Below, piece by piece: positions 3,847 through 34,670 of a stretch of 48,356 nucleotides of DNA. The position numbers and the translations under genes are program-made. Where the stretch lies: contig JAFGMK010000023.1 in NCBI GenBank assembly GCA_016927565.1, forward strand, positions 1-48,356, read 5' to 3'. This DNA is from Minisyncoccota bacterium. Its GTDB lineage: Bacteria; Patescibacteriota; Microgenomatia; PFEM01; JAFGMK01. The notes beneath the pieces are model-generated. The model was not told where the DNA came from and searched no databases. It saw only the letters and a program-made list of their open reading frames with translations. Numbering within the stretch: the first letter of the stretch is position 1; every line of letters begins with the position of its first letter.

Positions 3847-3969
3847 GAGACTGTTGAATAACATCTTAGCTGCTCGTCATTCTGAGGCTAAAAGCCGAAG
3901 ATCCCCATTCGAAGGGGATGCTTCGCTACGCTCAGGATGACGATGCAAAAAACAACATTCAACACGCTC
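3847..3969 (+). mobile_element. MITE-like composite repeat, copy 1
   Basis: Ends GAGACTGTTGAATA / CATTCAACACGCTC (imperfect TIR); core GTCATTCTGAG..GAAG..GATGCTTCGCTACGCTCAGGATGAC; flanks GTCTTTC / GTCTTTT. Confidence 0.75.
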
Positions 3970-3993
3970 GTCTTTTTTAAGAAATAATGTCAA

Positions 3994-5685
3994 ATGAAAG
4001 ATTTTTTTAAAAATAATTCTCGAATTCTTCTCCGGCCGCAGAAAAGCATTTTTTCAGCGGCGACGATTATTATGCTGATGATGACCGTTTCCCGGGTTTT
4101 GGGTCTGATTCGCAACCGGATTCTGGCTCACTATTTTTCTGCTCAAACTTTATCAATTTATTTTGCTGCTTTTCGTTTACCGGAAATTGTTTTTGAGGTT
4201 TTGGTTTTGGGAACTTTGGCTTCAGCCTTTATTCCGGTTTTTACTTCTTACCTGAGCCGGGGCAGGCAAAAAGAAGCTTGGCGAGTAGCGGCCATGAGTT
4301 TTAATCTAATTGTTTTGGTCTTTATTGTCCTGGCCGGCTTGGTTTTAATTTTCACTCGACCTCTTTATCGGATGATTGTTCCCGGTTTTGCTCCGGCGGC
4401 GTTGGGAAAAACAGTTCTTTTGGCCCGGGTTTTAATTTTCGCTCAAGGCTTTTTTCTCCTGAGCTACTTTTCAACAGCAGTTCTCGAATCTTTGAAAAGA
4501 TTTCTGATTCCGGCAATCGCTCCGGTTTTTTATAATTTGGGGATTATTCTGGCAACTGTTTTTTTAGCCGAACACTTTCAAATTCTGGCTCCGGCAATCG
4601 GGGCGGTTTTTGGGGCGGTGATGCATTTTTTGATTCAGGCGCCGCTAACGGTTCATTTGGGTTTTAAACTCCAAAAAGGCCTAGATTTTTCCCATCCCGG
4701 AGTGAGAAAGATCAGCCGTTTGGCTTTTCCCCGGATAATCGAACTTTCTTTCTTGCAGGTTTTTAAAAGCATTGAGCTTTATTTGGCTTCAATGATTTCC
4801 GGGGCGGCTTACACCTACTTGACTTTTGCCAACAGCCTCCAGCTTTTTCCCGTCGGTCTTTTCGGGATCAGCTTGGCCAAGGCTTCCCTGCCGAGCCTTT
4901 CTTATCAGGCCAGCCGGCGAAATAAGTTTAGGGAGGTTTTTTTAAGCGCTTTTAATCAGATTCTTTTTTGGACCATTCCCTCTGCAATATTCTTGGCTGT
5001 TTTGAGAATTCCGATAGTGAGACTTTTTTTTGGTGCCTCCCGTTTTGACTGGCCGGCAACAGTTCAGACAAGTTTTGTTTTAAGCGCTTTTTGCTTGGGA
5101 ATTCCGGCCCAGGCGCTGATTTATCTTCTCAATCGGGCTTTCTATGCTTTCCATCAATCGGTAACTCCGATGTTGGTTTCGATTGGTGCTCTTGTTCTGG
5201 GAGCTTTTCTGGGAGCTGTTTTCGTTCTGATTTTTAATTGGCCGGTTTGGAGTTTGGCCTTGGCTTTTTCGCTGGCGCAGAATTTCCAATTTTCCCTTTT
5301 GGTCTTTTTGCTTTTCAAACACCGGAAGAATTTCGGCTTTTCTTTCTCGGATTTTTTCTCTCCTTTTGTTAAAATTTTTTCCTCAGCTTTTTTATCCGGA
5401 GGATTAATGTATTTCTGCCTTAAAATTCTGGATCGATCGGTTTCGGGTCAACGTTTTCTTTTCTTGCCGAAACTGGAGGTGGCTTTGGATACCCGTTACA
5501 CGATTAATTTAATTATGGTTACTTTGTTAACCGGCTTGCTGGGAGGGCTGGCCTATATTTTGCTGGCCTGGGTTTGGCGGATTAAAGAATTAATGATTCT
5601 TTTAAAATTTTTTGCCCGAATTGAAAAAATTAGCTTTTTTTCTCGCCGTTTCTGGAAAAAAAGAGAGTCGATTACGATGGACTAA
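3994..5685 (+). CDS. murJ: Lipid II flippase MurJ (MviN)
   Basis: SRVLGLIRNR, AFRLPE, SAFIPVF motifs; many TM helices. Confidence 0.93.
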   Translation: MKDFFKNNSRILLRPQKSIFSAATIIMLMMTVSRVLGLIRNRILAHYFSAQTLSIYFAAFRLPEIVFEVLVLGTLASAFIPVFTSYLSRGRQKEAWRVAAMSFNLIVLVFIVLAGLVLIFTRPLYRMIVPGFAPAALGKTVLLARVLIFAQGFFLLSYFSTAVLESLKRFLIPAIAPVFYNLGIILATVFLAEHFQILAPAIGAVFGAVMHFLIQAPLTVHLGFKLQKGLDFSHPGVRKISRLAFPRIIELSFLQVFKSIELYLASMISGAAYTYLTFANSLQLFPVGLFGISLAKASLPSLSYQASRRNKFREVFLSAFNQILFWTIPSAIFLAVLRIPIVRLFFGASRFDWPATVQTSFVLSAFCLGIPAQALIYLLNRAFYAFHQSVTPMLVSIGALVLGAFLGAVFVLIFNWPVWSLALAFSLAQNFQFSLLVFLLFKHRKNFGFSFSDFFSPFVKIFSSAFLSGGLMYFCLKILDRSVSGQRFLFLPKLEVALDTRYTINLIMVTLLTGLLGGLAYILLAWVWRIKELMILLKFFARIEKISFFSRRFWKKRESITMD

Positions 5686-5717
5686 TCCTCCTGAGTTTTG
5701 ATTCTTTTAGAAAAAAG

Positions 5718-7529
5718 ATGACAAAAAACATCAGAAATTTTTGCATTATTGCTCATATAAACCATGGTAAATCTACCCTGGCTGACCGTCTTTTGGAACT
5801 GACGGGAACGGTTGCGCCGGAAAAAATGCGCTCCCAGTTCTTGGCTTCTCACCCGATTGAGCGGGAGCGGGGAATTACTATTCGCCTGGCTCCGGTTAAG
5901 ATGAACTATGCTGTAAATTCCCGTACTTATATCCTGAATCTGATTGACACTCCGGGACACGTTGATTTTTCTTATGAGGTTTCCCGTTCTCTGGCAGCTT
6001 GCGAAGGAGCGATCCTGGTAGTGGATGCCGTTTCCGGAGTTCAGGCTCAAACAGTCGCCAATTTAAGTTTGGCAAGAAAACAGAATTTGGCGATTATTCC
6101 CGTAATCAATAAGATTGATATCGAGGCGGCTCAGCCTGAGGAGGTTGCCTCGGAATTGGCAGGCGCCTTTGGTTTTTCCGAGAAAGAGATTTTATTTGTT
6201 TCAGCCAAAACCGGAGAGAATACCGGAGCAATTCTGGAGGCGGTAATTAAAAAGATTCCGCCTCCCTCAGGATCAACGACTAATGCTTTTCAGGGTCTGG
6301 TTTTTAACTCTACTTATGACTCTCATAAAGGAGTAATTGCCTGGGTGAGAATTAAACAGGGTAAATTGTCATTGCTGGGGCAGAATAGAAAAGAGACCAG
6401 AGTAAAGTTCTTGGCTACCGGAGTCCAAGGAGTAGTGGGAGAGCTTGGTTTTTTTACGCCTCAAATGAGCCGGGGTGATTCTTTGGATTGCGGTGATGTT
6501 GGCTATCTTTGCGCCGGAATTAAGGATTTGGCTTTGTGCCGGGTAGGCGATACGGTCGTTTCGGCCGATCAATCCGGGGTTGGAGTGTTAACCGGCTATC
6601 AGCCGGCCAGGCCGACTGTTTTTACCAGTTTTTATCCGACTGAGAACCAGGATTTTTATCTTTTAAAAGAGTCGCTTGAAAAGTTGAAACTTTCCGATAG
6701 CGCCTTAACCTTCTCGCCCGAATCATCACAAGGTTTGGGCAAGGGCTTCCGGATTGGTTTTTTGGGTTTGCTTCATGCCGAAGTGGTAGCGGATCGTCTG
6801 CGGCGCGACTTTGAGATTGACCTGGTAATGACGGCGCCGATGGTTTCTTACCAGGTCAGAAAAAGAAACGATGAGATTGTAAGAGTCAATCGTCCGGCTG
6901 ATTTCCCGGCGGCAAATCAAATCAGCGAGGTTTTAGAGCCGATTGTCAGCTTGAAGATTTTTTCGCCGTTTCAGTATGTGACCGGCCTGATTTCTTTGGT
7001 TAAGGAAAAAAGAGGGTCTTTGATTAAACAGGATTATTTTGGCCGGCAGGCAAGCTTAGTTTTTCAATTGCCTTTGGCAGAAATGATTGCCGATCTTTAT
7101 GATCGGGTTAAAAGCCTGTCCTCCGGTTTTGCTTCTTTTGATTGGGAGCTGGTTGGTTATGAGCCGGTTCGGGCAGTTAAATTGGAGGTTTTCCTTAATC
7201 AGCAGCCGGTGGACGCTTTTTCTCAAATTGTGCCTCAAAATCAGGCCCAAAACAAAGGCCGGAGGATTGTGGAAAAATTGAGAAAACTTATTCCCCGCCA
7301 GCAGTATGAAGTCATTATCCGAGCTCAAGTGGGGACGCGGGTAATAGCTCGGGAGACTTTAAAGCCTTTCCGTAAAGATGTAACGGCTAAGCTATACGGC
7401 GGTGATCAAACCCGGAAGGATAAGCTTTTGGGTAAACAGAAGAAGGGTAAAAAAAAGCTGAAGATGGTGGGTCGGGTTTCAATTCCTCAGGAAGTTTTCT
7501 GGCAGGCCCTGGGTGGGAGGGAAAACTAG
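5718..7529 (+). CDS. lepA: Elongation factor 4 (LepA)
   Basis: IRNFCIIAH(I/N)HGKSTLADR, ERERGITI, DTPGHVDFSYEVSRSL, RKDVTAKLYGGD. Confidence 0.97.
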   Translation: MTKNIRNFCIIAHINHGKSTLADRLLELTGTVAPEKMRSQFLASHPIERERGITIRLAPVKMNYAVNSRTYILNLIDTPGHVDFSYEVSRSLAACEGAILVVDAVSGVQAQTVANLSLARKQNLAIIPVINKIDIEAAQPEEVASELAGAFGFSEKEILFVSAKTGENTGAILEAVIKKIPPPSGSTTNAFQGLVFNSTYDSHKGVIAWVRIKQGKLSLLGQNRKETRVKFLATGVQGVVGELGFFTPQMSRGDSLDCGDVGYLCAGIKDLALCRVGDTVVSADQSGVGVLTGYQPARPTVFTSFYPTENQDFYLLKESLEKLKLSDSALTFSPESSQGLGKGFRIGFLGLLHAEVVADRLRRDFEIDLVMTAPMVSYQVRKRNDEIVRVNRPADFPAANQISEVLEPIVSLKIFSPFQYVTGLISLVKEKRGSLIKQDYFGRQASLVFQLPLAEMIADLYDRVKSLSSGFASFDWELVGYEPVRAVKLEVFLNQQPVDAFSQIVPQNQAQNKGRRIVEKLRKLIPRQQYEVIIRAQVGTRVIARETLKPFRKDVTAKLYGGDQTRKDKLLGKQKKGKKKLKMVGRVSIPQEVFWQALGGREN

Positions 7530-8073: not shown

Positions 8074-8132
8074 TGTCTTGTTATCTTAACAGATTTTTTG
8101 GGATTAAAGCAAGATCGATTTCTCCGAGACTC

Positions 8133-8281
8133 AAGATTATTGAATAACGTCTTGGTCCATTGTCATTCTGACCCCGCCCCGTCATTCAGAAGCCGAAGGC
8201 CGGAAGAATCCCTTCGGGTTCAAGCCGGGGATCCTTCGCTTGTCTCAGGTGGCGGCGGGAAAATTTTTATTCACCAGACTC
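8133..8281 (+). mobile_element. MITE-like composite repeat, copy 2 (degenerate, internal GTCATTC duplicated)
   Basis: AAGATTATTGAATAA...TGTCATTCTGA..GTCATTCAGAAGCCGAAGGCCGGAAGAATCCC..GGGATCCTTCGCTTGTCTCAGG...TATTCACCAGACTC. Confidence 0.6.
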
Positions 8282-8291
8282 ATTCCCCCGC

Positions 8292-8328
8292 TTGACATTT
8301 TTTAGCAGTCGTGATAGATTACTGCTAG
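8292..8328 (+). promoter_or_regulatory. hrcA operon promoter with overlapping CIRCE-like operator
   Basis: TTGACA (8292), 17 nt, TAGATT with extended TG; TTAGCAGTC-N9-TACTGCTAG at 8302-8328 versus the CIRCE consensus TTAGCACTC-N9-GAGTGCTAA; SD AAGGAGG at 8334. Confidence 0.85.
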
Positions 8329-8345
8329 CTTAAAAGGAGGTAAAA

Positions 8346-9074: not shown

Positions 9075-9088
9075 GACTTGGAGGGCAA

Positions 9089-9535: not shown

Positions 9536-9577
9536 GCGGTTTTATCTAATAGCTAATAAATAACAAAAGGAGCATCT

Positions 9578-11512: not shown

Positions 11513-11522
11513 AAAAAGAACG

Positions 11523-23172: not shown

Positions 23173-23814
23173 ATGTCCGAAAAAGAAAAAAAATTAATTG
23201 AAATTGCTCGGCGGGTAAGCCAATGCACTAATTGTCCGCTTCATAAAACAGCGACTAATCCGGTTCCGGGCGCCGGGAATCCGGAAGCAAAAATTGTTTT
23301 CATCGGGGAAGCCCCCGGTTTTCATGAAGATCAACAGGGTTTGCCTTTTGTTGGAGCTGCCGGGAAACTTCTGGAACGCCTGCTGGCGCTGATCGATTTA
23401 AAACGGGAGGAGGTTTTTATTTGTAATATGCTTCGACACCGGCCGCCGGGGAATCGGGATCCCCTGCCTGAGGAAATGAAAGCTTGTCAGCCTTTCCTGG
23501 ATGAGCAGATCAAAGTTATCGACCCTAAAATTTTAGTCACCCTTGGCCGGTTTTCAATGAATAAATTTTTGCCGGGAGCATATATCTCTCAAGTCCACGG
23601 GGTGGCGAGATATGTTAATTTTGCCGGCAAGAAGCGGATTGTTATTCCCATGTATCACCCGGCAGCGGCTTTGAGGAACGGTCGGGTGATGACGGCTTTT
23701 AGGAATGATTTTCAGAGGATTCCCCGATTTCTCTTTGAATCGCTGAATCAGGAAGAAACAGAGGAAGTTGTTTCGGAAGAAAAAACTCAAGATGAACAGA
23801 TGGGACTGTTTTAG
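23173..23814 (+). CDS. Uracil-DNA glycosylase family 4 (4Fe-4S)
   Basis: CTNCPL, GEAPG, PFVGAAG, RPPGNRDP, YHPAA; C-terminal QMGLF. Confidence 0.93.
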   Translation: MSEKEKKLIEIARRVSQCTNCPLHKTATNPVPGAGNPEAKIVFIGEAPGFHEDQQGLPFVGAAGKLLERLLALIDLKREEVFICNMLRHRPPGNRDPLPEEMKACQPFLDEQIKVIDPKILVTLGRFSMNKFLPGAYISQVHGVARYVNFAGKKRIVIPMYHPAAALRNGRVMTAFRNDFQRIPRFLFESLNQEETEEVVSEEKTQDEQMGLF

Positions 23815-23973
23815 ACTCCTCCCCGATCTGTCATTCTCGTGTGATTAACAGTAAGTGCAAAATAGGGTAAGGGATAGTATCTGTTTGGGTATTTACTCGG
23901 TTTCTTAAAATAATTCAGAGTTATTCGATCCCGGGTCGGGGGGGCTGCGGATTATCAAGGAAAGTAAGTAATT

Positions 23974-24094
23974 GGGACTGTTGAATAATATCTTGGCTAT
24001 TCGTCATTCTGAGGCTAAAAGCCGAAGAATCCCATTCGAAAAGGGTCTTTAGCAGTTCAGGATGACGATGCGGAAAACAATATCCAACACTCTT
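23974..24094 (+). mobile_element. MITE-like composite repeat, copy 3
   Basis: GGGACTGTTGAATA...GTCATTCTGAGGCTAAAAGCCGAAGAATCCC...CAGGATGAC...TATCCAACACTCTT; flanks GTAAGTAATT / GTGAGTAACT (8/10 identical). Confidence 0.78.
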
Positions 24095-24158
24095 GTGAGT
24101 AACTACAGGTTAGTGCCTGTTTGGCTTCGGGGGGTAGTTTTGTTGTATAATGGTTAAA

Positions 24159-26297
24159 ATGCCCAAAAAGAAAAAAAAGATCTCCTCTGTGGCCAGGTCC
24201 CGCCGGGGTCGCCGTCGGAAGCCATTCAAGCTAAAACTCAAAAAAGAAACAATTTACACTTTTTCTTCGGTCATTTTTTTTGTCTTGGCGGGAATTGTGA
24301 TCCTTTCTTTTTCCCGTCAGGGAATTATTTTAGCTAAAATTTTTGATTTTCTTAGTTTCCTTCTGGGGTGGGGAATTATTTTTGTCCCTTTTTTTCTTTT
24401 AAGTGCCGGGTTGATGCTTTCCCGGCTGAAGTGGCAACTAACCCGGCCTAATGTTTTTGTCGGCGGTTTCGTTCTTCTGATAGCAGCAGTTTCTTTAACC
24501 AGATCGGGCAGTCTGGGACAACTAATGTGGTCAAGGTTGGCCTTCTTAATGACTTCGAGAGGCGCTTTTCTGATTTTTTTTGGCTTATTTTTCGTCGGTT
24601 TTGTTGTCACTTTTAACACTTCTTTGGAAGAGGTGATTCTTTTTGTGGCCCACTTTTTTTTAGGGATTAAAAAAATATGGCTTTTTTTTACTAAAATTAA
24701 AAAGCCCCGTTTTGTGCTTTCCAAACCGAAGTTATCAGCTTCGGAAACAGGAACAGAGAAAAGAGAGATCGAAGTAAAAGGGAGGCCGAAAGAATCAGAA
24801 GAAACGGAGAATCAACCGGCCCTAACATCGGATTTAGCGGCCAGTTTTTCCGGTCAGGGAAAGATTTGGCAGCTTCCTTCGCTATCGATTCTTGAGGATA
24901 AAGTAAGTGGTCAGGCCGATCGGGGCGATATTAAAAAGAATGCCGATATAATAGAAAAAACCTTGGAATCTTTTGGGATTTCGGCTAGTGTTGTTGAGGT
25001 AAATTTAGGGCCGGCAGTGACCCAGTATGCTCTGGAGATTGCTTTGGGGACAAAACTGTCAAAAATTACCTCATTGGCTACTGATCTTGCTTTGGCTTTG
25101 GCTGCGCCGACGGGTCAGATTAGAATTGAAGCGCCGATTCCGGGGCGGTCTTTAGTTGGCGTCGAAGTTCCCAATCAAGTGCCTGAATTTGTTTCTCTGA
25201 AAAAGATGCTGATTTCAGACAAAATGAAGAACGCCAAGTCTAAACTGACTGTTGCTTTGGGTTTGGATGTTTCCGGCAGTCCCCTGGCGGTGAATATTGC
25301 CAAAATGCCTCATGTTTTAATTGCCGGTGCGACCGGGAGCGGCAAGTCGGTTTGTATCAATTCCTTTATTGCCTCGATTCTTTTTCGGGCTTCTCCGGAT
25401 GAGGTGAAGCTTATTTTAGTTGATCCGAAAAGGGTGGAATTAACCCAATACAATGACATCCCGCATCTTTTGACGCCGGTAATTGTCGAGCCGGATAAAG
25501 TACTTTCTGCTTTGAAATGGGCAATCTCGGAAATGGAAAAGCGCTACAAGCTTTTTGCCGAGGTGGGGGTGAGAAACATTGATGCTTATAATGAACTTTC
25601 GGGCTTAACGATTCTCCCTTATATTATCATTTTTATTGATGAATTAGCCGATATTATGCTTTTTGCTCCGGCTGATGTTGAAGATACCATTTGTCGGATT
25701 GCTCAGATGGCCCGAGCGACGGGAATTCATCTGGTTATTTCTACTCAAAGGCCGTCGGTAGATGTCATTACCGGCCTGATCAAGGCCAATATCCCCTGTC
25801 GGATTGCTTTCAATGTTTCTTCTCAAATTGATTCCCGAGTGATCATTGACACTCCGGGAGCAGAGAAACTTTTAGGTCGGGGGGATATGCTTTATATTCC
25901 GCCGGATCAAGCCAAGCCGACTCGAGTTCAGGGAACCTTTGTTTCCGATCCGGAGATTCAGCGGCTGATTTCGGCCCTTAAAAATTCGGGGATAGCGCCG
26001 GTTTACACTGAAGAGGTGATAGTTGATCATCAACCGAAAGACCGTCCCGGAATTGCCGGCGAAGATGAAGAAAGAGACGAGCTCTTTAAAGAAGCAGTAG
26101 AAATAGTTTGCCGTTTTGAGAGAGCTTCGGCTTCTTTGCTTCAAAGACGTCTAAAAGTCGGGTACGCCCGGGCCGCCCGGATTTTAGATCAACTGGAAAA
26201 AATGCAAATTGTCGGTCCGGCTGAAGGGGCAAAACCGCGAGAGATCCTGATCGGGAGTGCCGAGGAATATTTTTCTTCACAAACATCCCGGCCATAA
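24159..26297 (+). CDS. ftsK: DNA translocase FtsK/SpoIIIE
   Basis: 4TM N-terminus, GATGSGKS, IDELAD, TQRPSVDV, LLGRGDML, gamma domain ASLLQRRLKVGYARAAR. Start placed at 24159 because ATG 24150 overlaps a TATAAT box. Confidence 0.96.
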   Translation: MPKKKKKISSVARSRRGRRRKPFKLKLKKETIYTFSSVIFFVLAGIVILSFSRQGIILAKIFDFLSFLLGWGIIFVPFFLLSAGLMLSRLKWQLTRPNVFVGGFVLLIAAVSLTRSGSLGQLMWSRLAFLMTSRGAFLIFFGLFFVGFVVTFNTSLEEVILFVAHFFLGIKKIWLFFTKIKKPRFVLSKPKLSASETGTEKREIEVKGRPKESEETENQPALTSDLAASFSGQGKIWQLPSLSILEDKVSGQADRGDIKKNADIIEKTLESFGISASVVEVNLGPAVTQYALEIALGTKLSKITSLATDLALALAAPTGQIRIEAPIPGRSLVGVEVPNQVPEFVSLKKMLISDKMKNAKSKLTVALGLDVSGSPLAVNIAKMPHVLIAGATGSGKSVCINSFIASILFRASPDEVKLILVDPKRVELTQYNDIPHLLTPVIVEPDKVLSALKWAISEMEKRYKLFAEVGVRNIDAYNELSGLTILPYIIIFIDELADIMLFAPADVEDTICRIAQMARATGIHLVISTQRPSVDVITGLIKANIPCRIAFNVSSQIDSRVIIDTPGAEKLLGRGDMLYIPPDQAKPTRVQGTFVSDPEIQRLISALKNSGIAPVYTEEVIVDHQPKDRPGIAGEDEERDELFKEAVEIVCRFERASASLLQRRLKVGYARAARILDQLEKMQIVGPAEGAKPREILIGSAEEYFSSQTSRP

Positions 26298-26930
26298 ATG
26301 AAAACCGTCGGCAAAATCCTGAAAGAAACCAGAAAAAAGAAAGAAATTAGTCTTGTCCGGGCGGCTTCTTCAACCCGAATCAGGCTTGGTTTCTTAAGAT
26401 CGATTGAAAATAATGATTTTGCCAGATTGCCTTCAGCCGCAAGCGCATATGGGTTTGTTAAGAATTATGCCGAATATCTTGGGGTTTCGACTGAGCGGGT
26501 TTTGGCTGTCTTCAGGCGTGATTTTTTAACGGATAAAAAAGGGAGAGTGGTTCCCCGGGGTTTGGTGAAGCCGTTGGACACTCCTGGTTTTTTCCGCTCG
26601 TCGCGGCTAGGTTTTTTTCTGGCAACCTTTTGCTTCATTGCAGCGATCCTTGCTTATCTTGGCTGGCAGTATTTTAGCCTTAGCCGTGGGCCGCAGCTGG
26701 CCCTTGTCAGTCCTGATGATCAGGTTCGGGTTTTTGGTGATTCCATAGAGGTGGCGGGCAACTCAGAGCCCGATGCAACCGTAAGAATCAACGGCGAGTC
26801 GATTGTTCTTTCCGGTCGGGGAGACTTTACGGCGATTGTTTTTTTGAAAGAAGGGAAAAATGTGATTCTCGTGGAGGCGACTAATAAATGGGGAAAGAAA
26901 ACACGTCAGGTCAGAGAGGTTTACCGATAA
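26298..26930 (+). CDS. RodZ-like protein: HTH, TM and C-terminal Ig-like domain
   Basis: VGKILKETR..TRIR..IENNDFARLP..GFVKNYAEYLG (HTH_25-like), TM, then VAGNSEPDATVRING...LKEGKNVILVEATNKWG. Confidence 0.8.
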   Translation: MKTVGKILKETRKKKEISLVRAASSTRIRLGFLRSIENNDFARLPSAASAYGFVKNYAEYLGVSTERVLAVFRRDFLTDKKGRVVPRGLVKPLDTPGFFRSSRLGFFLATFCFIAAILAYLGWQYFSLSRGPQLALVSPDDQVRVFGDSIEVAGNSEPDATVRINGESIVLSGRGDFTAIVFLKEGKNVILVEATNKWGKKTRQVREVYR

Positions 26931-26965
26931 TCTCCGGAGAGTTTGTTTGATGTATAAAATTATGG

Positions 26966-27017
26966 TTGACAGTGTTTCCGGGATATAGCAAAATGGAATT
27001 GTTGCAAATTGAGGAGG
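26966..27017 (+). promoter_or_regulatory. Promoter and SD for the 27022 operon
   Basis: TTGACA-17-CAAAAT; GAGGAGG at 27011. Confidence 0.55.
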
Positions 27018-27021
27018 TTTT

Positions 27022-27300
27022 ATGGTTGACGTTGTTCAGATTATTTTGGTTATGGTGGTGACAACAGTAACAATTCTGTTGGTTATTTTAGGGATTCAGG
27101 TTTTTAATATCCTGAAAGAATTTAGAGGAACAATCAATAAGGTGAATAAAATGCTTGATGACTTCGGAACTGTTTCCGAATCAATTGCCAAGCCGATTGC
27201 TTCGGCTGCCGATATTTTGACCGGGGCAACCGGGATCACTGGTTTGTTGGGCTGGCTATTTAACCGAAAGAAAAAAGACGGAGGGATTGAAGATGAATGA
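27022..27300 (+). CDS. Small membrane protein (DUF948/YtxG-like)
   Basis: N-terminal TM and amphipathic coiled segment; directly upstream of a YtxH-like gene. Confidence 0.7.
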   Translation: MVDVVQIILVMVVTTVTILLVILGIQVFNILKEFRGTINKVNKMLDDFGTVSESIAKPIASAADILTGATGITGLLGWLFNRKKKDGGIEDE

Positions 27301-27670
27301 GCGGGAGCGAGGGAACAGTTTCTTTTCCGGGTTTATTGCCGGGGGTTTAATCGGAGCTGTTTTAGTTTTTTTATTCGGCACTAAAGAAGGCCGGAAAATA
27401 AAAAAAAGGCTTGAGAAAAAAGGCCAGGAATTGGCTAAAGATTTACCCGGGATTGTCAGCGATTTGGAAAAAAGAGGAGCAGAGTTTGCTCAAAAGGCGG
27501 AAGAGGTTAAACAAACATTGGAAAAAAAAGCCGAGGAGCTTTCTCCCAAAATCAAGAGAAAGCTGGATCAATCTTTGGCTTCAATTGAAGAAACTCAAGA
27601 AAAGGGTCGCCAAACAGCGGCCAGGATCCGTCGCCGTTTCTTTGTCAAAAAGGGCCGGCAGTTAGGCTGA
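27293..27670 (+). CDS. YtxH-domain protein
   Basis: FFSGFIAGGLIGAVLVFLFGTKEGRKIKK signature followed by a coiled coil. Confidence 0.8.
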   Translation: MNERERGNSFFSGFIAGGLIGAVLVFLFGTKEGRKIKKRLEKKGQELAKDLPGIVSDLEKRGAEFAQKAEEVKQTLEKKAEELSPKIKRKLDQSLASIEETQEKGRQTAARIRRRFFVKKGRQLG

Positions 27671-27866
27671 GGCTTTTTAATTTTCTTCAAAATAGCTTCC
27701 TGGTTACGGGTTTTCCGGTTTGTCCGATATTCTTTGACAAAGGCATTTCTTTTCAATTTGATTTCCCCCCGTCTGAGTTAGAAGATTCAGAATAAAGAAG
27801 AATCCGGAGGTTTCCTATCAATTTGTCATTGCCAGGTCTGGCTTAGCTCAGTATAATAGAATCAAG

Positions 27867-29723
27867 ATGAAGGCTAATCAACTCCGGGAAAAATACTTTG
27901 CTTTTTTTGAAAAGAAAGGCCATCGAAGGGTTCCGGCAGCTCTTCTGGTGCCGGAAAATGATCCGACCACTCTTTTTGTCAGTTCCGGGATGCAGCCGAT
28001 GATGCCTTATCTTTTAGGTGAAAAACATCCTTTGGGAAGCAGGATTGTCAATAGTCAGCCCTGTATCAGGACTCAGGATATCAAAGAGGTGGGTGACGGC
28101 CGTCATACCACCTTTTTTGAGATGCTGGGTAACTGGTCTCTGGGAGACTATTTCAAAAAAGAGCAATTGGCCTGGTTTTTTGAATTTTTAACCGGCGAGA
28201 TCGGCCTTGACCCCGCCAGATTATATGTGACTGTTTTTGCCGGTAATGATCAAGTGCAAAAAGATCAGGAGGCGATAGAAATTTGGCAGGAACTTTTTAA
28301 AACAAAAAAAGCGCCCAGAGAAGGTAAAGAAGGTTTTGATCCCGAAGTTAAAGTCTACCTTTATGGCTCGAAGAAAAACTGGTGGTCAAGGTCAGGAGCG
28401 CCGGATCAAATGCCGACAGGCGAGCCCGGCGGGCCGGACTCAGAAATGTTTTTTGATTTCGGGGCTGACCTCGGGATTCATGAGCGCTCAATTTTTGCCC
28501 AAAACGAATGCCATTTAAATTGCGACTGCGGCCGTTTTTTAGAGATTGGCAATTCCGTTTTTATGGAGTATCAAAAGAATCAGTCGGGTGGCTTTGACAA
28601 GTTGCCGGCTCGGAATATCGATTTTGGCGGCGGTTTTGAAAGGATTTTAGCTTCAAGTTGGGATCAGCCGGATATTTTCCGCACAGAATTGTTTTATCCG
28701 ATAATTGGCGCAATTCAAAAAGCAACAGGCGTGGGATACCGGCAAAATCCGGTTTTTATGCAGGTGATTGCCGACCACCTCAAGGCAGCTGTCTTTTTGG
28801 TTGATCAGGGTGTCGAGCCAAGCAATAAACAACAGGGCTATGTTTTAAGGCGTTTGTTGCGCCGGGCGGTGGTAAAAATGCAGCAGCTTAAAAAAGAAAA
28901 AATTTCGGAGACTGATTTTGAGCCGCTTTGTGAGGCGGTTCTGAGGATTTATCAGGGAATTTACTTTGATGATATTGCCAAGCGGAAAAAAAAGATTGCT
29001 CCGGTTATTAGTCAGGAAGTTGACCGGTTTAATCAAAACCTCATTCGAGGTTTAAGAATAGTTGCCGAAACGGTTCCGGAAGAAATCAACGGGCAGTTTG
29101 CCTTTAAACTTTTTTCCACTTACGGTTTTCCTTTTGAGGTTACCCGGGAGTTGGCTCTGGTTAAGGGAATAGATCTGGCTAGAGAGGCTTTTGAAAAAGA
29201 ATTCAAAGGTCATCAGGCCAAATCCCGAACGGCTGCCAGAGGGATGTTTAAAGGCGGTTTAGCTGATTCTTCTGAGAGGATTGTTAAGCTTCATACCGCC
29301 ACTCACCTGCTTCATCAGGCGCTCCGGAAAGTTTTGGGCAACCATGTCCGGCAGGTCGGCAGCAATATTACTGCCGAACGTCTCCGCTTTGATTTTACTC
29401 ATCCGGAAAAATTAACTCCAAAGCAAGTTAAAGAAATTCAAGATATTGTCAACCAGACAATTGATCGTGGCCTGGAAGTTAAAAAAGAAATAATGAGTTT
29501 GGCAGAAGCCGAGAAGTGCGGCGCCCTGGCTTTTTTTAAAGAGAGATATGCCCGGGAAGTAACTGTTTATTCAATCGGTGGTTTTTCCCGGGAAGTTTGC
29601 GCCGGACCTCATGTTCAAAACACCCGGAAGGTTGGACATGTTGAAATAACAAAAGAAGAGAGTGTGGGAACAGGACGACGTCGGCTTTATATGATCCTTA
29701 AGGAGCTGCCCAATGGATCCTAG
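27867..29723 (+). CDS. alaS: Alanine--tRNA ligase (short form without the C-Ala domain)
   Basis: DPTTLF, HTTFFEMLGNWS, VIADH, editing motifs HTATHLLH and EVCAGPH; 618 aa. Confidence 0.96.
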   Translation: MKANQLREKYFAFFEKKGHRRVPAALLVPENDPTTLFVSSGMQPMMPYLLGEKHPLGSRIVNSQPCIRTQDIKEVGDGRHTTFFEMLGNWSLGDYFKKEQLAWFFEFLTGEIGLDPARLYVTVFAGNDQVQKDQEAIEIWQELFKTKKAPREGKEGFDPEVKVYLYGSKKNWWSRSGAPDQMPTGEPGGPDSEMFFDFGADLGIHERSIFAQNECHLNCDCGRFLEIGNSVFMEYQKNQSGGFDKLPARNIDFGGGFERILASSWDQPDIFRTELFYPIIGAIQKATGVGYRQNPVFMQVIADHLKAAVFLVDQGVEPSNKQQGYVLRRLLRRAVVKMQQLKKEKISETDFEPLCEAVLRIYQGIYFDDIAKRKKKIAPVISQEVDRFNQNLIRGLRIVAETVPEEINGQFAFKLFSTYGFPFEVTRELALVKGIDLAREAFEKEFKGHQAKSRTAARGMFKGGLADSSERIVKLHTATHLLHQALRKVLGNHVRQVGSNITAERLRFDFTHPEKLTPKQVKEIQDIVNQTIDRGLEVKKEIMSLAEAEKCGALAFFKERYAREVTVYSIGGFSREVCAGPHVQNTRKVGHVEITKEESVGTGRRRLYMILKELPNGS

Positions 29724-32007
29724 ACAAATTTTTGAAAGAATTCGCCAAACGGAAACCCCGCTGGAATATACCTTTGCTTTTGAAATTGCTCCAGATGTGG
29801 TGAAGGGGGCGATTTGGGCCATTGACGATCAAAAAGCAAAAACTTTTTCTGTCAGTCCGCCAATTTCCTGGCAAAATGGCAAACTTCTGGAAGCGGCTGA
29901 TCGCTGTTTTTCGCTTGCGGTAGAAAAGGCAGCTCTTTCTCAGGAAGATGAACCGAAAAAAGTAATGTTCGGCTTGCCCTATTCTTGGGTTGAGGGTGAT
30001 AAAATTGTCAGCCAGAAATTAAGTTTATTGAAAAATCTTTGCCAAAGTTTAGATCTCAAGCCGGTTGGTTTTGTAGTAGTGGCCGAAGCAATTGTTTCTT
30101 ATTTGGAAACAATTGAAGGTTTGCCGCCGAATGCGATCTTGGTTCAGATTGGAATAAGCGAAGCTGAGATTACGCTTCTCCGGTTAGGGAAGATCATCGG
30201 TCGGGCGGTTGTCGGCCGGAGTGAAAATTTAGGCGAAGATGTCGCCGAGGGGCTTTCGCGGATTAAAAGTCAGGAGGTCTTACCGGCCAGAATGATTCTC
30301 TATAATGGCCAGGGAGAAATCGAAGAAAAAAAAGAAGAAATTCTTACTTATCCCTGGCTGGCCAAGGAAAGTTCTTTTAACTTTTTGCATCTACCTAAGG
30401 TAGAAGTGGTTTCAGCAGAGTTTGATATTAAGGCCGTGGCTTTGGCAGGAGGGGCGGAAATCGCTAAAGCCAAAGGGATTAAGGCCGAGATTTTTACTCA
30501 AGAGGAAAAAGAAAATTCCCCATCCGGAGAAAAGGCTTCTTTTCCGGAAACTTCTGAAGAAGGCCAGCGGCCTTTAGATAAAGACAGGGAAGAGGATTCG
30601 ACTCCAGACGAAGCCAGGTTGCTTTTAAAGTCCGATTCGCTGAAAAAGTCAGATGAGCTTGATTTTGGTTTTGTAAAAGAAAAAGATATCACTCTTGACC
30701 AGGTAAATGAAGAAAAAAAAGTTGTTTCCGACCCGGCCCGATTGGCAAAGAAATCGGCTCAAAAACCAAAATTAGCTTTTTTAAAGCGTCTGAAACGGCC
30801 GAAAATAAAATTGAGCCGGGTAAATTTTAAAAATTTTTTTTCCGGGATAAGGCGTCAGCGGTTGCCCTTTTTAGGAGCTTTTCTCCTGGTATTTTTCTTG
30901 CTGCTGGGCGGAGCTTTGTTTTGGTTTTGGTGGTTTTTCCCCAAAGCGGAAATAACCCTTTTTGTTAAGCCTCAAACTCTGGAAAAGGAATTTGAAATCA
31001 TTCTTGACGCTGATGCGGAGCAGGTGGATATCGAAACAATGACTTTGCCGGCCAAACTAATGGAAAGAGACCTTAAAAGTGAAGAAGAACAAGATACCAC
31101 CGGAACTAAGTTGGTGGGAGAGAAGGCCGGCGGCGAAGTGATGATTTATAACCGTACTTTAGAAGAAAAGACGCTTAAGCCGGGCACTGTTTTAATCGGG
31201 CCAAGCGGCTTGGAGTTTTCACTGAGTGAAACAGTAATTGTCGCTTCTGAAAGCAGTGGCCCTGATTATGTTAGGATTCCCGGTAAAGCATCAGTCAGGG
31301 TAAGCGCGACGGCGATTGGAGCTGAAAGCAACCTGGCTTCAGGAACGGAATTCGAAATTGATAAGTATTCGCGGACCGATCTGGTTGCCCGAAATGACTC
31401 TGCCTTCAGCGGGGGAAGCAGCCGAGAAATTAAGATTGTAAGCGAGAAAGATCAGGAAAAACTGGCGGCTTTGCTTTTAAACCGATTGAGAGAGCGGGCG
31501 ATCGGGCAGTTGGAAGAGGAGATTTCAGCGGAAGATAGTCTGATCGGGGAATCTTTGACCGAGGAAATTTTGGCTAAAAGCTTTGACCGTCAGGCAGGAG
31601 AAGAGGCAAACCAATTAAGGTTGGTGCTTGAAATCCGCTTTAAAGCGCTGGCTTATCAGAAAGACCAGCTTACGAGTTTGGTAAGAGAGAAAATTAAAAA
31701 GGCAGTTTCTTCCGGGTTTGAATTCAAAGAGGAGGAAAGCGAAGTTGATTTTAAACTGGAAAAGATTCTAGATAAAGGAAGAGTGGTTTTTGCCGCTTCC
31801 TTTAAGGCGATTCTCTGGCCGAAGATAGATGTGTTGCAAATCCGGGAAAATTTAAGGGGAAAAGAACCAGAAACGGGAGAGTTTTATCTTAACAGTTTGC
31901 CTAATCTGGCCGGTTTTGAGGTTTTGATTACTCCTAATTTACCCTCAGGAATAAAGACTTTTCCCAGGGTGGCGGATAATATTCAGATTGAGTTAAAATC
32001 GCGATAA
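29713..32007 (+). CDS. Membrane protein with an FtsA/PilM-like N-terminal domain and a baseplate-J-like extracellular domain
   Basis: Degenerate actin-fold phosphate-motif-like strands (FEIAPDVVKGAIW; LVQIGISEAEITLL), acidic linker, TM, then PKAEITL / ATG..GEKAGGEVMIYN / GTVL / A.AIGAESN / FSGGSSR, as seen in baseplate J/gp47-annotated CPR proteins. Confidence 0.65.
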   Translation: MDPRQIFERIRQTETPLEYTFAFEIAPDVVKGAIWAIDDQKAKTFSVSPPISWQNGKLLEAADRCFSLAVEKAALSQEDEPKKVMFGLPYSWVEGDKIVSQKLSLLKNLCQSLDLKPVGFVVVAEAIVSYLETIEGLPPNAILVQIGISEAEITLLRLGKIIGRAVVGRSENLGEDVAEGLSRIKSQEVLPARMILYNGQGEIEEKKEEILTYPWLAKESSFNFLHLPKVEVVSAEFDIKAVALAGGAEIAKAKGIKAEIFTQEEKENSPSGEKASFPETSEEGQRPLDKDREEDSTPDEARLLLKSDSLKKSDELDFGFVKEKDITLDQVNEEKKVVSDPARLAKKSAQKPKLAFLKRLKRPKIKLSRVNFKNFFSGIRRQRLPFLGAFLLVFFLLLGGALFWFWWFFPKAEITLFVKPQTLEKEFEIILDADAEQVDIETMTLPAKLMERDLKSEEEQDTTGTKLVGEKAGGEVMIYNRTLEEKTLKPGTVLIGPSGLEFSLSETVIVASESSGPDYVRIPGKASVRVSATAIGAESNLASGTEFEIDKYSRTDLVARNDSAFSGGSSREIKIVSEKDQEKLAALLLNRLRERAIGQLEEEISAEDSLIGESLTEEILAKSFDRQAGEEANQLRLVLEIRFKALAYQKDQLTSLVREKIKKAVSSGFEFKEEESEVDFKLEKILDKGRVVFAASFKAILWPKIDVLQIRENLRGKEPETGEFYLNSLPNLAGFEVLITPNLPSGIKTFPRVADNIQIELKSR

Positions 32008-32759
32008 TGGCTCTTTATTGTTACCTCAAAAGTCCTTCCAGTCCGCCGCGGCGAATTAATTCCGATTTAAAACGGGGCTGGGGTCGGCCGGGAATCGACT
32101 CAGCCAAAAAAGGACGTTTTTTTTCCGGTTTTTTAATCGGCTTGGGGGTAATTATTTTACTGGTGGTTTTAGGTTCATTTGGCTTTTATCAAGTGCAAAG
32201 CAGCCGGAATTTTGCCAAGAAAGATTACTTCTTGTCGCCTTTGCCTAAAGCTTCGGTTCTGGGAGAATCTCAAAAAGCTTTGCCGGCCGGGTATCAGCAA
32301 CCTGCCTATTGGTTCTCCAGTCCGCCGCCGCTGCCCTTCAAAAACAGCAAAATCACCCACTATAATCTTTCAATTCCTGTTTTGGGGATTAATCGAGCGG
32401 TGGTCGAAATTGGCGGGGAAGATTTGGGTAAAAGCATGGTGCACTATCCGGGAACAGCTTTTCCGGGCGAGAAAGGCAACGCGGTGGTTTTTTGCCATTC
32501 GGTTTTGCCCCAGTTTTTTAACCCCAAAAATTATAAAACGATTTGCTCAACTTTGCCGACAATGAAGACCGGAGATGAGATTTTAATTTATTTTGACGGA
32601 ATCGAATATGCCTATCAGGTTTTTGAAATGATTGAGGTTCAACCGACTAATATTTCAGTCTTGGAGCCGGATTTGTCGGGCGAGTATCTTTCAATGATTA
32701 CCTGCGTTCCGCCGGGAACTTATTTAAGAAGACTTATCGTTAAGGCAAGATTGATATAA
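32007..32759 (+). CDS. Sortase
   Basis: TM anchor, LSIPVLGI, HYPGTAFPGEKGN..CHS, catalytic MITCVPPG..RR. Confidence 0.9.
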   Translation: MALYCYLKSPSSPPRRINSDLKRGWGRPGIDSAKKGRFFSGFLIGLGVIILLVVLGSFGFYQVQSSRNFAKKDYFLSPLPKASVLGESQKALPAGYQQPAYWFSSPPPLPFKNSKITHYNLSIPVLGINRAVVEIGGEDLGKSMVHYPGTAFPGEKGNAVVFCHSVLPQFFNPKNYKTICSTLPTMKTGDEILIYFDGIEYAYQVFEMIEVQPTNISVLEPDLSGEYLSMITCVPPGTYLRRLIVKARLI

Positions 32760-32817
32760 TCGGATTCAGAATGTTTTAAAAAAGGGAGTTGGAAATTCTT
32801 TAATTCCTGTTTTTTTT

Positions 32818-33195
32818 ATGATTTTCCTTGGGGTTGATTACGGTCGGGTGAAAATTGGTTTGGCTTTGGGCAATGAGTTGGCGGTTTGGCCGGTGGCTGT
32901 GTGGAAAAATAAAGAAGGCTTCTTTCGGCGGATCAAAGTCTTTTGCCTTGAAAACCAGGTTGAAAAAATCATAGTCGGTTTACCGGAGGGCGAGCTGGAA
33001 AGAGAAATCAGAAATTTCGGCCAGCAACTGGGGCAATTGACCGGCTTGGCGGTGATTTATGAAGCTGAAACCTTGACCACTCAGGAGGCAATTGCTAAAA
33101 TGATCCAGGTCGGTAAAAAAAAGAAATTCAGACAGAAAAAAGAAGATGCCTTTGCGGCGGCGATGATTCTGGAAAATTATTTAAATAGATTATGA
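32818..33195 (+). CDS. yqgF: YqgF/RuvX family RNase H-fold nuclease
   Basis: LGVDYGRVKIGLA, IIVGLP, ETLTT, EDAFAAAMILENYL. Confidence 0.9.
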   Translation: MIFLGVDYGRVKIGLALGNELAVWPVAVWKNKEGFFRRIKVFCLENQVEKIIVGLPEGELEREIRNFGQQLGQLTGLAVIYEAETLTTQEAIAKMIQVGKKKKFRQKKEDAFAAAMILENYLNRL

Positions 33196-33222
33196 ATTAC
33201 AAAAGTTAACTTTTGTAATTCA
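33193..33222. repeat. Perfect 30-bp palindrome
   Basis: TGAATTACAAAAGTT|AACTTTTGTAATTCA. Confidence 0.85.
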
Positions 33223-33230
33223 AACAAAAT

Positions 33231-33431
33231 ATGTTTAAAAAGATTATTGCTCCGGTTCAGGCTTGGCTTTTGTCTCAGGGTAAATGTGTTGGGTGCGGCC
33301 GCTCCCTAAAAAAAGGAAAAAGAGAGAGCCGCCAGGACAAAACTGAAAAGGTGACTTGTTCCTGCGGCCGGATATTTATTCATAATCAAGGGACCGGCCG
33401 GTACCGAAGAGCTCTTTTTGAGGAAGTATAA
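33231..33431 (+). CDS. Small zinc-ribbon protein
   Basis: CVGC...CSCG pairs in 66 aa; tight spacing to mltG. Confidence 0.75.
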   Translation: MFKKIIAPVQAWLLSQGKCVGCGRSLKKGKRESRQDKTEKVTCSCGRIFIHNQGTGRYRRALFEEV

Positions 33432-33436
33432 AAACG

Positions 33437-34459
33437 ATGGCTCGAAAACCTCGGCGGGTGCTGATTATCGGTTTGGTATTTTTGGCTGTCGGAGTCGCCT
33501 TTGGCGGCTTTTTTTGGTGGCAACAAGCGAAAGCTCCTTTAACTGACTCCGGACAGGTCAAAAACTTCGTGATAAAAAAGGGAGAAAGCTTAGATTCGGT
33601 CGCCCGGCGGCTCAAAAGAGAGGGTTTTTTAAGAAATGCTCTTGCCTTTAAAATCTGGGTTCAAGCAAAAAACTCAGCCGATAAAATCCAAGCCGGGAGT
33701 TTTAAGTTAAGTCCGGACTTTGATTTTGAAAAATTATTTTCCAGCCTAACTCATGGGAAACACGATGTTTGGGTGACTTTTCCCGAGGGTTGGCGGAGAG
33801 AAGAATTTGCTCTGGAACTAATCAGGCAGGGCTTTGAAATTGACCTGGCGGATTGGATAAGGGAAACTGCCGGTCTCGAAGGCTATTTATTTCCCGATAC
33901 CTACCTTTTCCCCCAAAATTATTCTCAAGGAGAAATTCTCGGCAAACTCAGGGATACATTTTCAGAAAAGATAACCAGTGGTTTAAAAACCGACCTGGCT
34001 CAAAGCAGATTTTCTTTGACGGAGACAGTTATTCTCGGCTCATTGATTGAACGCGAGGTTAATATTGACCAGGATCGGCCAATTGTCGCCGGAATTCTGA
34101 TTAAAAGATGGCAAAATGACTGGCCGCTTGAGATCGACGCTACTGTTCAGTACGCAAAAGTTGAAAACTTTTTAGCCATAATCGAGTTTGAGGATTTGCT
34201 TGAAGTGTATCGCAGTATAGAATGGTGGCCCGGAAACATTGATCAAAAAGATTTAAAAATAGATTCTCCATACAATACCCGTCTTTACAAAAATCTGCCT
34301 CCCGGGCCGATCTGCAATCCCGGATTGGCCTCAATTAAGGCGGTTTTAGACTATCGGGAGACGCCTTATTGGTTTTATCTTTCCGATTCTCAGGGCCGGA
34401 CTCATTATGCTGAGGATTTGGCCGAGCACAATGCTAATGTTGCCAAATACTTAAGGTAG
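33437..34459 (+). CDS. mltG: Endolytic transglycosylase MltG
   Basis: TM, VTFPEGWR, LEGYLFPDTY, SLIERE, SPYNT..LPPGPICNPG. Confidence 0.94.
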   Translation: MARKPRRVLIIGLVFLAVGVAFGGFFWWQQAKAPLTDSGQVKNFVIKKGESLDSVARRLKREGFLRNALAFKIWVQAKNSADKIQAGSFKLSPDFDFEKLFSSLTHGKHDVWVTFPEGWRREEFALELIRQGFEIDLADWIRETAGLEGYLFPDTYLFPQNYSQGEILGKLRDTFSEKITSGLKTDLAQSRFSLTETVILGSLIEREVNIDQDRPIVAGILIKRWQNDWPLEIDATVQYAKVENFLAIIEFEDLLEVYRSIEWWPGNIDQKDLKIDSPYNTRLYKNLPPGPICNPGLASIKAVLDYRETPYWFYLSDSQGRTHYAEDLAEHNANVAKYLR

Positions 34460-34544
34460 TTTGAGAGAAACACCAAATTCAGGACCCTGGATCTGAAGAT
34501 TCCCGGTCTGATTGCTTGCCCGCAATCTTGATCTTAAAAACCCG

Positions 34545-34670
34545 GAGAGTGTTGGATATTGTTTTTCGCATCGTCATCCTGGGCGTAGCGAAGAAGGATC
34601 CCCTTCGAATAGGATTCTTCGGCTTTTAGTCTTAGAATGACGAGCAGCTAAGATCTTATTCCACAATCTC
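34545..34670 (-). mobile_element. MITE-like composite repeat, copy 4 (inverted)
   Basis: Reverse complement of the copy 1/3 sequence; ends GAGAGTGTTGGATA / TATTCCACAATCTC; flanks AAAAACCCG / GAAAACCCG (8/9 identical). Confidence 0.78.

Follow-up and report, generated by a model that had tools for sequence, protein, structure and literature searches.

The stretch of Minisyncoccota DNA analysed here (the window; 48,356 nucleotides (nt)) carries, between positions 3847 and 34670, four copies of a short dispersed repeat, each lying upstream of a core gene or operon. We regard these four repeats as very probably copies of a non-autonomous transposon, a miniature inverted-repeat transposable element (MITE), with the ends of an insertion sequence (IS) of the IS5/IS1182 superfamily and, as its cargo, a doublet of hairpin units of the repetitive extragenic palindrome (REP) type. 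The window is contig C26 of a 1.19-Mb genome assembly (G000; 31 contigs, 96% complete), and a second genome that serves for comparison, G001, represents a sister genus; other C-numbers below are contigs of G000 and L-numbers are loci from contig scans. The four copies (c1-c4), the parts of c1 with its terminal inverted repeats (TIRs), and the neighbouring features are these:

3476-3760, minus strand: rpsT (Pfam), which borders c1
3847-3969, plus strand: copy c1, 123 bp, short subfamily, between rpsT and murJ
3847-3875, plus strand: left arm of c1, with the TIR GAGACTGTTGAATAA and subterminal bases
3876-3906, plus strand: hairpin unit U of c1, with a (C)GTCAT head and a stem ATTCTGAGGC/GCCGAAG that holds a tandem G.A mismatch; within it, the loop TAAAA and the tail ATCCCC
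3914-3941, minus strand: hairpin unit U' of c1, the unit type of U on the other strand and its partner in the doublet
3942-3969, plus strand: right arm and right TIR of c1, containing the -35-like TCAACA (3959-3964)
3994 (longest open reading frame (ORF)) or, more likely, 4003, plus strand: start of murJ (Pfam), downstream of c1
8126-8281, plus strand: copy c2, long subfamily, a shell of arms and TIRs in which a truncated first unit (GTCATTCTGACCCCGCC) precedes a complete doublet
23173-23814: UDG-family gene (Pfam), which borders c3
23974-24094, plus strand: copy c3, short subfamily, between the UDG-family gene and ftsK
24150-26297: ftsK (Pfam), which borders c3
34510-34527: terminator-like hairpin of yceG/mltG
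34545-34670, minus strand: copy c4, an inverted member of the short subfamily, bordered by the terminator-like hairpin of yceG/mltG on one side and the promoter-like site of rpoB on the other
34685-34713: rpoB promoter-like site, downstream of c4, of the operon rpoB-rpoC

All four copies were located at the coordinates given in a first-pass annotation of this DNA, with one refinement: the left end of c2 probably lies at 8126 (GAGACTC...) and not at 8133, which falls inside a 7-nt disturbed left end. Pfam searches confirmed the neighbours named there, namely rpsT (minus) and murJ (plus) around c1, hrcA-grpE-dnaK downstream of c2, the UDG-family gene and ftsK around c3, and yceG and rpoB-rpoC around c4; alignment with G001 suggests that murJ probably starts at the ATG at 4003 (MKDFFKNNSRIL), 33 nt past the end of the MITE. 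The copies can be aligned end to end with a mean column identity of 70%. Pairwise identity within the short subfamily (c1, c3 and c4; 121-126 bp) is 81-87%, with BLAST values of 86.5% for c1/c4 and 82.5% for c1/c3, and c2, of the long subfamily (149-156 bp), shares 87-90% identity with three copies found elsewhere in the assembly (C20, C27). The order of parts is the same in each copy: a left arm of ~29 nt starting GAGACTGTTGAATAA, a hairpin unit headed (C/T)GTCAT, a second, inverted unit, and a right arm of ~28 nt ending TTATTCAACAGTCTC. The imperfect TIRs of the form GAGA(C/G)TGTTGAATA, described previously, are present in the copies.

These copies belong to a family that spans 33 loci in G000. 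A profile built from five copies gave 60 nhmmer hits, which reduce to 42 non-overlapping loci and then to 33 clusters; both TIRs are present at ≤4 mismatches per 15 positions in 14 clusters, one recognisable end is present in another 14, and five have none. At least one shell end is thus kept at 28 of the 33 loci, and several of the one-end clusters are in fact full copies, one end of which has an indel. Copies range from 121 to 232 bp, have no ORF of their own and are nearly all intergenic. The exact 15-mer end occurs eight times in G000, compared to none for the reversed control. It was found in only 2 of 23 genomes of the order (G000 and G001) and in 4 of 401 genomes sampled from the class, two of them again G000 and G001. 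In another genome of the class, G144, three contig breaks each lie exactly 40 nt from a copy of the end; the match in G085 was discarded as chance, lying inside the coding region of a Clp-type ATPase. Solo exact ends of 15-20 nt with no partner were also seen (G000 C9:22090-22104; G001 L019:2788-2815 and L024), one of them directly before a gene start and the one on L019 adjoining a putative non-transposase ORF; these are probably remnants of old insertions.

Near-direct repeats flank the window copies. They read GTCTTTC (3840-3846) and GTCTTTT (3970-3976) at c1 (6 of 7 positions matched), GTAAGTAATT/GTGAGTAACT at c3 (8/10; as GTAAGTAA/GTGAGTAA, 7/8 with a 2-nt offset) and AAAACCCG at c4, where the match is exact (8/8, at 34537-34544 and 34672-34679, with one extra G at 34671); given the 8126 boundary, c2 is flanked by ATTTCTCC/ATTCCCCC (6/8, read by eye). 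The flank repeats noted earlier on three of the copies are borne out across the family as target-site duplications (TSDs). We compared the flanks of 18 copies, 15 from a scan for TIR pairs and three nhmmer copies with indel-bearing ends (C30, C21 and C8), using flank lengths of 7, 8 and 9, a boundary play of 2 nt and a null made up of every mismatched left/right flank pair. Excluded as chance before the count were seven TIR-pair candidates that had 3-4 mismatches per end and no nhmmer hit (C5:44712, C12:14258, C14:24409, C15:10280, C20:72716, C23:2878 and C27:50181). With a length of 8, at least 7 positions matched in 8 of the 18 copies, compared to 1.3% of the mismatched pairs; with a length of 9, at least 8 positions matched in 7 of the 18, compared to 0.65% of null pairs. 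None of 5000 permutations reached the observed mean (p ~2e-4). Exact duplications include TAATAATC, GATAATCCT, TTTTGATTT, AACACCAAA and AAAACCCG, and the insertion targets are A/T-rich. Tabulated over the family, the duplications are real but have no strictly fixed length (7-10 bp). Elements of the HUH/RAYT type are not known to make such target duplications.

To what kind of transposon do these ends belong? No cognate transposase had been seen in the window, and none was found in the entire G000 assembly; an intact one with the MITE TIRs does occur in public metagenome contigs. A scan of these contigs with the end 18-mer gave 49 loci; ~17 of them, from 8 distinct sequences, are unrelated and match by chance. 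Eight loci are full elements of 1320-1450 bp with the TIR common to both ends, and 11 more are left ends interrupted by the end of the contig. Six of the eight full elements have one intact ORF of 373-393 amino acids (aa), which is shortened to 218 aa in L093 and to 201 aa in L096. The encoded protein contains the Pfam domains DUF772 (1e-13 to 3e-17), DDE_Tnp_1 (5e-12 to 3e-18) and DDE_Tnp_1_6 (~1e-8 to 4e-10), all three above the Pfam cut-offs in 4/4 parent transposases. Among NCBIfam families the best score was to IS1182 (NF033551; 156-196 bits, cut-off 270) and the second best to IS5 (NF033581; 119-128 bits, cut-off 140), with 3/3 parent transposases below the cut-off in each case. Judged from these sequence comparisons, the parent IS probably belongs to the IS5/IS1182 superfamily while scoring below every curated family threshold. 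A search for relatives of the transposase gave 277 at E≤1e-20, many on contigs of ~1.4 kb; the few with a named source are annotated as 'IS5 family transposase', Gottesmanbacteria and Patescibacteria.

Several observations connect the shell to this IS. Bases 3847-3866/7 of c1 are identical to the IS left end (L049, L057, L083, L088, L093) at 20-21 of 21 positions. The full elements are themselves flanked by repeats, of 7 bp (L049 and L093) or 10 bp (L057). G144 bears the parent IS at its three contig breaks, where the break ends are identical to both ends and the flanks of the L057 copy. A scan of genome contigs added seven loci: three are chance matches (L042, L043, L046), two are shells (L044, L047), L041 is the solo TIR of L019, and L045 is an IS end at a contig start, identical to that of G144. 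In addition, the IS5-family element IS903B has the ends GGCTTTGTTGAATAAATC and a duplication of 9 bp (PMC10569121); TGTTGAATAA is common to this end and the MITE TIR at positions 6-15, at equal distance from the tip. Because the ends, the G144 breaks, the flank repeats and the likeness to IS903B tie the two together, we conclude that the shell is a MITE of the 1.32-1.45 kb IS. Other assignments fared less well. The ends had been called IS256/IS1182-like, and of this label the IS1182 half stands, as the best NCBIfam match albeit below its cut-off; IS256 does not, as Transposase_mut (PF00872) has no hit in G000 or G001 and the domain set of the parent transposase is different. An IS6/IS26 origin, considered from the look of the end, was rejected (PF13610 is absent in G000, and the parent is IS5/IS1182-like), a search for rve (PF00665) in G000 and G001 gave none, and the derivation of the right-arm GTCAT box from the IS right end was dropped, since such a box is present in only 2/5 IS variants.

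In several respects the element is a typical IS5/IS1182-derived MITE: it is short and non-coding, has the TIRs of an autonomous IS and flank duplications, and occurs in many copies between genes. It differs in that its interior is a REP-type hairpin doublet rather than IS sequence, in that the parent is absent from the assembly, and in that the duplication length is variable (7-10 bp).

The interior appears not to be IS-derived; it reads as an inverted pair of CGTC-headed REP-type units. The unit consensus is (C/T)GTCAT-TC-TGAGGC-loop-GCCGAA-GA-ATCCC, and the second unit is its opposite-strand form. The heads are CGTCAT in c1, c3 and c4, and TGTCAT and CGTCAT in c2; the stem starts ATTC/GAAT, the loop is TAAAA or GAAG (4-5 nt), and the tail is CCC. 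Most units have a stem of 10 positions with a conserved tandem G.A mismatch (TGAG/CGAA), and units of the type of U in c1 recur across the whole genome. The 2013 survey by Di Nocera, De Gregorio and Rocco (PMC3733652) describes CGTC-tagged REPs, among them dRS3 of Neisseria, as having an unpaired CGTC/TGTC head, an A-T/T-A stem start, 8-9 perfect pairs, a 4-5 nt loop and a short tail; in its words, they 'apparently lack a dedicated transposase'. The units described here resemble them in head, stem start, loop, C-rich tail, inverted dimers and clusters, so that the earlier description of a REP-like doublet is upheld in all these unit features except the stem, in which 10 positions with a tandem mismatch replace the 8-9 perfect pairs. 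The same survey places REPs mainly downstream of genes and between convergent genes, whereas the MITE copies lie upstream of genes. For two species it mentions REP dimers that sit within longer palindromes; here, the enclosing palindrome consists of IS ends with target duplications.

A second class of hairpins is also similar. Chenal et al. 2025 (PMC11893778) pair the NTS (CGTCATTCCCGCGMAVGCGGGAATCYRG) and SRM repeats with the Ssn family of GIY-YIG nucleases, which act on single strands, and that work ties these hairpins to the nuclease and not to a mechanism of mobility. The likeness lies in the unit boxes CGTCATTC ... GAATC(C) around a hairpin and in the occurrence of clusters; the degenerate SRM search motif of that article gave 4 matches in G000, none of them in the MITE family, compared to 0-6 in shuffles.

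The first-pass annotation had linked the doublet to GIY-YIG nuclease or RAYT genes, and units of its type were seen beside a small GIY-YIG gene in one genome and not in the other. In G025, which belongs to a different family of the class, units of the CGTC-headed type lie on either side of a 95-aa GIY-YIG ORF. The sole small GIY-YIG gene of G000 (C1:3126-3452) lacks such a unit at its side; downstream of it comes a tRNA, ahead of which there is a loosely similar stretch. An NCBIfam search with the GIY-YIG ORFs gave no useful hit, and a PDB sequence search with the G025 ORF gave no match. G000 also contains RAYT-like (Y1_Tnp) ORFs, three of them full-length (225-244 aa) and a fourth fragmentary; each exceeds the Pfam cut-off, and the unit motif was not found near any of them:

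C10:5782-6459: RAYT-like ORF
C5:82769-83446: RAYT-like ORF
C5:138846-139580: RAYT-like ORF
C9:7650-7814: fragment of a RAYT-like ORF

In the REPIN/RAYT system, a single RAYT gene is flanked by REP units with a GTAG head and the inverted doublet is the replicating unit; REPINs and their RAYT transposases were reportedly described by Nunvar in 2010 and by Bertels and Rainey in 2011. The present case shares with this system the inverted REP doublet and the RAYT-like genes in the genome, but here the head is CGTC rather than GTAG, the RAYT-like genes are unflanked, and both the ends and the duplications of the element are of the DDE type. Correia elements, found near promoters, are MITEs that form hairpins. 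This MITE and the dRS3 repeats make up distinct families in Neisseria; here, in contrast, MITE and hairpin repeats form one composite unit.

Hairpin units also occur outside the shell. The five clusters that lack ends are arrays or fragments of hairpin units alone, with shell-free arrays at C23:15089-15430, at C23:17615-18049 (continuing into C17:1-91) and at C29:40318-40475. Half-units are tandemly multiplied in places, as 30 nt x3 (C20:10370-10460, inside a copy), 23 nt x4 (C29:40383-40475) and 19 nt x4 (C23:17886-17960), and one copy, C5:109672, looks recombinant, with a short-type left half and a long-type right half. The shell-free arrays suggest a local copying mechanism that acts beside existing units. 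The C23/C17 arrays and the one that closes C29 resemble mosaics of dRS3-type units, and Neisseria mosaic regions are mentioned in the REP survey (PMC3733652).

Examination of other genomes shows that shell and doublet occur together outside G000. G001 has five copies of its own interior variant, all five inside this shell and with flank repeats of 7-9 bp. On other contigs, 8 of 9 short elements with two TIRs hold a CGTC-headed doublet (L047, L050, L053, L054, L064, L071, L076 and L090), each with a different stem and spacer, and the ninth (L081) has a different, non-REP interior. In L053 and L047, an extra GC-rich palindrome (GCCTGCC..GGCAGGC) lies in the loop of the right unit as a third level of nesting.

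The window sites themselves were compared with their counterparts in G001, whose contig C17 is syntenic with the window. A profile search of the four orthologous spacers found the element absent at 4/4 sites, and the G001 spacers are shorter by about the length of the element (112 vs 233 nt for c1 and 46 vs 213 nt for c2). The comparison of orthologous loci therefore delivers the absence of the element, and it stops short of a readable single copy of the flank. A single sequencing run, which may be of the source sample, was listed as containing this DNA, and no RNA run was listed; its contigs covering 23500-35200 have c3 and c4 unchanged and no junctions that skip either copy.

These observations argue for the reading given at the outset, namely a REP doublet enclosed between IS ends that spreads as a non-autonomous hybrid, as the first-pass annotation had also proposed; the IS ends, the TSDs, the 28 of 33 loci with a shell end and the 5/5 shelled copies in G001 all support it. 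In the mechanism that we favour, the 15-21 bp TIRs would be the ends of an IS5/IS1182-superfamily IS that lives in bacteria of the candidate phyla radiation (CPR)/Patescibacteria type. A DDE transposase supplied in trans would bind these ends and excise the element by cut-and-paste chemistry, insertion would take place in A/T-rich intergenic DNA, where the target would be cut with a stagger of ~7-10 bp (8-9 in most cases), and repair of the cut would generate the flanking duplications. The hairpin pair would travel as cargo of the MITE in this lineage, which would make the MITE the main vehicle that disperses the hairpins to new loci. The copies are 70-90% alike and the assembly has no transposase for them; they are probably old and now immobile, or else reliant on an IS that the assembly lacks. 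That they adjoin promoters would most simply reflect where insertions are tolerated or preferred, and not a host function.

Several points weigh against this reading. No parent transposase is present in G000: tblastn with two parent transposases gave nothing better than E=3, and DDE_Tnp_1 (PF01609) was not found in G000, G001 or G144, so mobilisation in trans is, in this organism, an inference. The contig ends of G000 are broken by several unassembled ISs, none of which has the MITE TIR. With both curated cut-offs missed, the family of the parent IS is a tentative assignment. In 10 of the 18 copies only 4-6 of 8 flank positions matched, as expected of old insertions, and the duplications appear to be anywhere between 6 and 10 bp long, the boundary being uncertain by 1-2 nt. 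At the element-free sites of G001, the only close genome and one of another genus, the spacers are too diverged to align base by base, so that a single copy of the flank is unreadable. The copies are enriched in divergent spacers (9/19 vs 21%), which could reflect function rather than tolerance. Finally, the TIR hardly varies from lineage to lineage but the interiors are very different, for which a single ancient capture is not an obvious explanation.

Other repeats in the G000 assembly deserve mention beside the broken contig ends. An unassembled, multi-copy IS30-like element is represented by its gene start (MKKYKHLSIKERELI...) and gene end (...RPRKRLGYYTPSEVFEKETGWGI) at eight contig ends (C29, C7 and C14 right; C3, C14 and C15 left; C21 and C22 right), with inverted ends CCAGARTTCAAG...TGCCCC; 2/3 of its left junctions abut sequence that resembles the MITE right end. 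Two further related multi-copy elements, with unassembled bodies, break the assembly, with common ends that finish ...CGCGTCCTAGACA (...TAGACA) and ...CGCGACCTATACA (...TATACA), at C1, C2 and C19 left and C13 right, and at C18 both, C20 left and C19 right, respectively. A second dispersed repeat family of ~65 nt, with palindromes of the GATCCCGG...CCGGGATC type, came up in a BLAST of the contig ends and is unrelated to the MITE; its sites include C5:78049-78115, C5:86216-86281, C5:60527-60574, C27:43528-43574 and C1:106-171.

The diversity of interiors bears on an alternative that we consider possible, if clearly second to a travelling cargo: that REP-type units repeatedly colonise the MITE or replace each other inside it, through insertion or duplication beside CGTC-headed units already present, the MITE being a preferred landing pad and not the product of one capture. 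The stem, loop and spacer of the interior do differ across lineages within a nearly invariant TIR, the long subfamily holds an extra truncated unit, C5:109672 is a hybrid, half-units occur in tandem, and the shell of L081 has a non-REP interior. However, the interior type of G001 is found only inside shells (5/5) and 28/33 loci of G000 keep a shell end, which is what co-inheritance predicts, and compensatory drift of the palindrome could also yield different interiors.

A related proposal, which we hold to be rather unlikely, would make the pairing functional. In this case, CGTC-headed REPs with no dedicated transposase would spread mainly inside the MITE, and the doublet would draw the two ends of the element together or be nicked by an Ssn-type single-strand nuclease, such that two mobilisation or repair systems serve one composite. 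If true, this would explain why doublets are found in 8/9 short TIR elements of unrelated contigs despite their differing sequence.

The position of the copies raises the question of a role in gene expression. It is correct, as had been reported, that two of the copies end 10-14 nt before a -35 box: the promoter-like site of hrcA (8292-8320, with its -35 at 8292) begins 10 nt past the end of c2, and the -35 of rpoB, at 34685, lies 14 nt past the end of c4. At the right end of c1, the -35-like TCAACA (3959-3964) is followed, 18 nt downstream, by AATAAT ending at 3988, a weak match (9/12) of which ~0.9 is expected by chance. The hrcA promoter also overlaps an inverted repeat, TTAGCAGTC-N9-ACTGCTAGC (8298-8326), that is conserved in G001; we take it to resemble the CIRCE operator of HrcA. 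By a rough ORF model, 9 of 19 copies lie in divergent spacers compared to 21% expected by length (p=0.011), and 0/19 lie in convergent spacers compared to 14%. This distribution is in line with A/T-rich promoter regions being where the element inserts or is tolerated, and it is the opposite of that reported for REPs in the survey (PMC3733652).

Folding of the copies as single-stranded DNA gave z-scores of -5.8 (-5.78) for c1, for which a long hairpin is predicted, and of -0.85, -1.67 and -1.25 for c2, c3 and c4. The interior had been described as self-folding; thermodynamically this is clear for c1 only, and c2-c4 are not distinct from shuffles. The canonical strand is the more stable one in 8/17 copies. 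This absence of strand bias fits a DNA palindrome rather than an RNA gene, and an Rfam scan of the window found no family at gathering score. A permissive scan of c1 gave weak hits only, of which the best, Hammerhead_II (19.6 bits, gathering score 37; E 0.084), was rejected because its would-be core is altered from CUGA to CAGA in the long subfamily.

With these results in hand, we consider it very unlikely that the copies are host-selected cis-regulatory modules (insulators, 5'-untranslated-region structures or hybrid promoters) before core operons, with mobility secondary. The copies do stand upstream of genes, in divergent and never in convergent spacers, c2 and c4 end close before strong -35 boxes, and the end of c1 lies 24-33 nt ahead of where murJ starts, with TCAACA and, 18 nt downstream, AATAAT. 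However, the -35/-10 boxes of hrcA and rpoB are conserved in G001, where the element is absent at 4/4 sites, and the proposal that the copies insulate or tune these promoters finds no support here. Moreover, both orientations relative to the downstream gene occur, folding shows no strand bias, no Rfam family reaches its gathering score, and the promoter-like match of c1 is at chance level. The copies are also in decay, and as single-stranded DNA only one of the four in the window folds better than most of its shuffles. We found no evidence for a host function of the copies, and a regulatory role is not supported.

Least probable of all, and hardly to be expected, is that the whole element is an extended REP/REPIN-type hairpin moved by a tyrosine (RAYT-like) transposase or an Ssn-like GIY-YIG nuclease with the arms as mere extensions of its stem: G000 does have three RAYT-like ORFs with a fragment and one small GIY-YIG ORF, the interior is REP-like, the entire element is a long imperfect palindrome, and CGTC-type REP dimers in longer palindromes are reported (PMC3733652), but the arms match the ends of a DDE IS at 20-21/21 bases, which runs counter to an ordinary stem extension, flank duplications of 7-10 bp are present, and no units lie near the RAYT-like genes or beside the small GIY-YIG gene of G000.

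MITEs, CGTC-tagged REPs and Ssn-linked hairpins are each already known. What is new is that the palindrome enclosing the hairpins is shown to consist of the ends of an identifiable DDE IS, with target duplications, and that the composite accounts for most hairpin loci in G000. Literature searches, supplements aside, returned no MITE described for CPR/Patescibacteria and no GIY-YIG with REPs under those words; an IS/MITE pair is now documented in these bacteria. There is also a practical consequence for annotation, in that elements before murJ, hrcA-dnaK, ftsK and rpoBC could pass for regulatory RNA structures. More broadly, the result bears on how REP hairpins of the CGTC/dRS3/NTS class multiply. 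In one genome, 28 of 33 hairpin loci lie within identifiable IS ends with target duplications, and hitch-hiking in a MITE offers a concrete and testable route by which such hairpins may spread.

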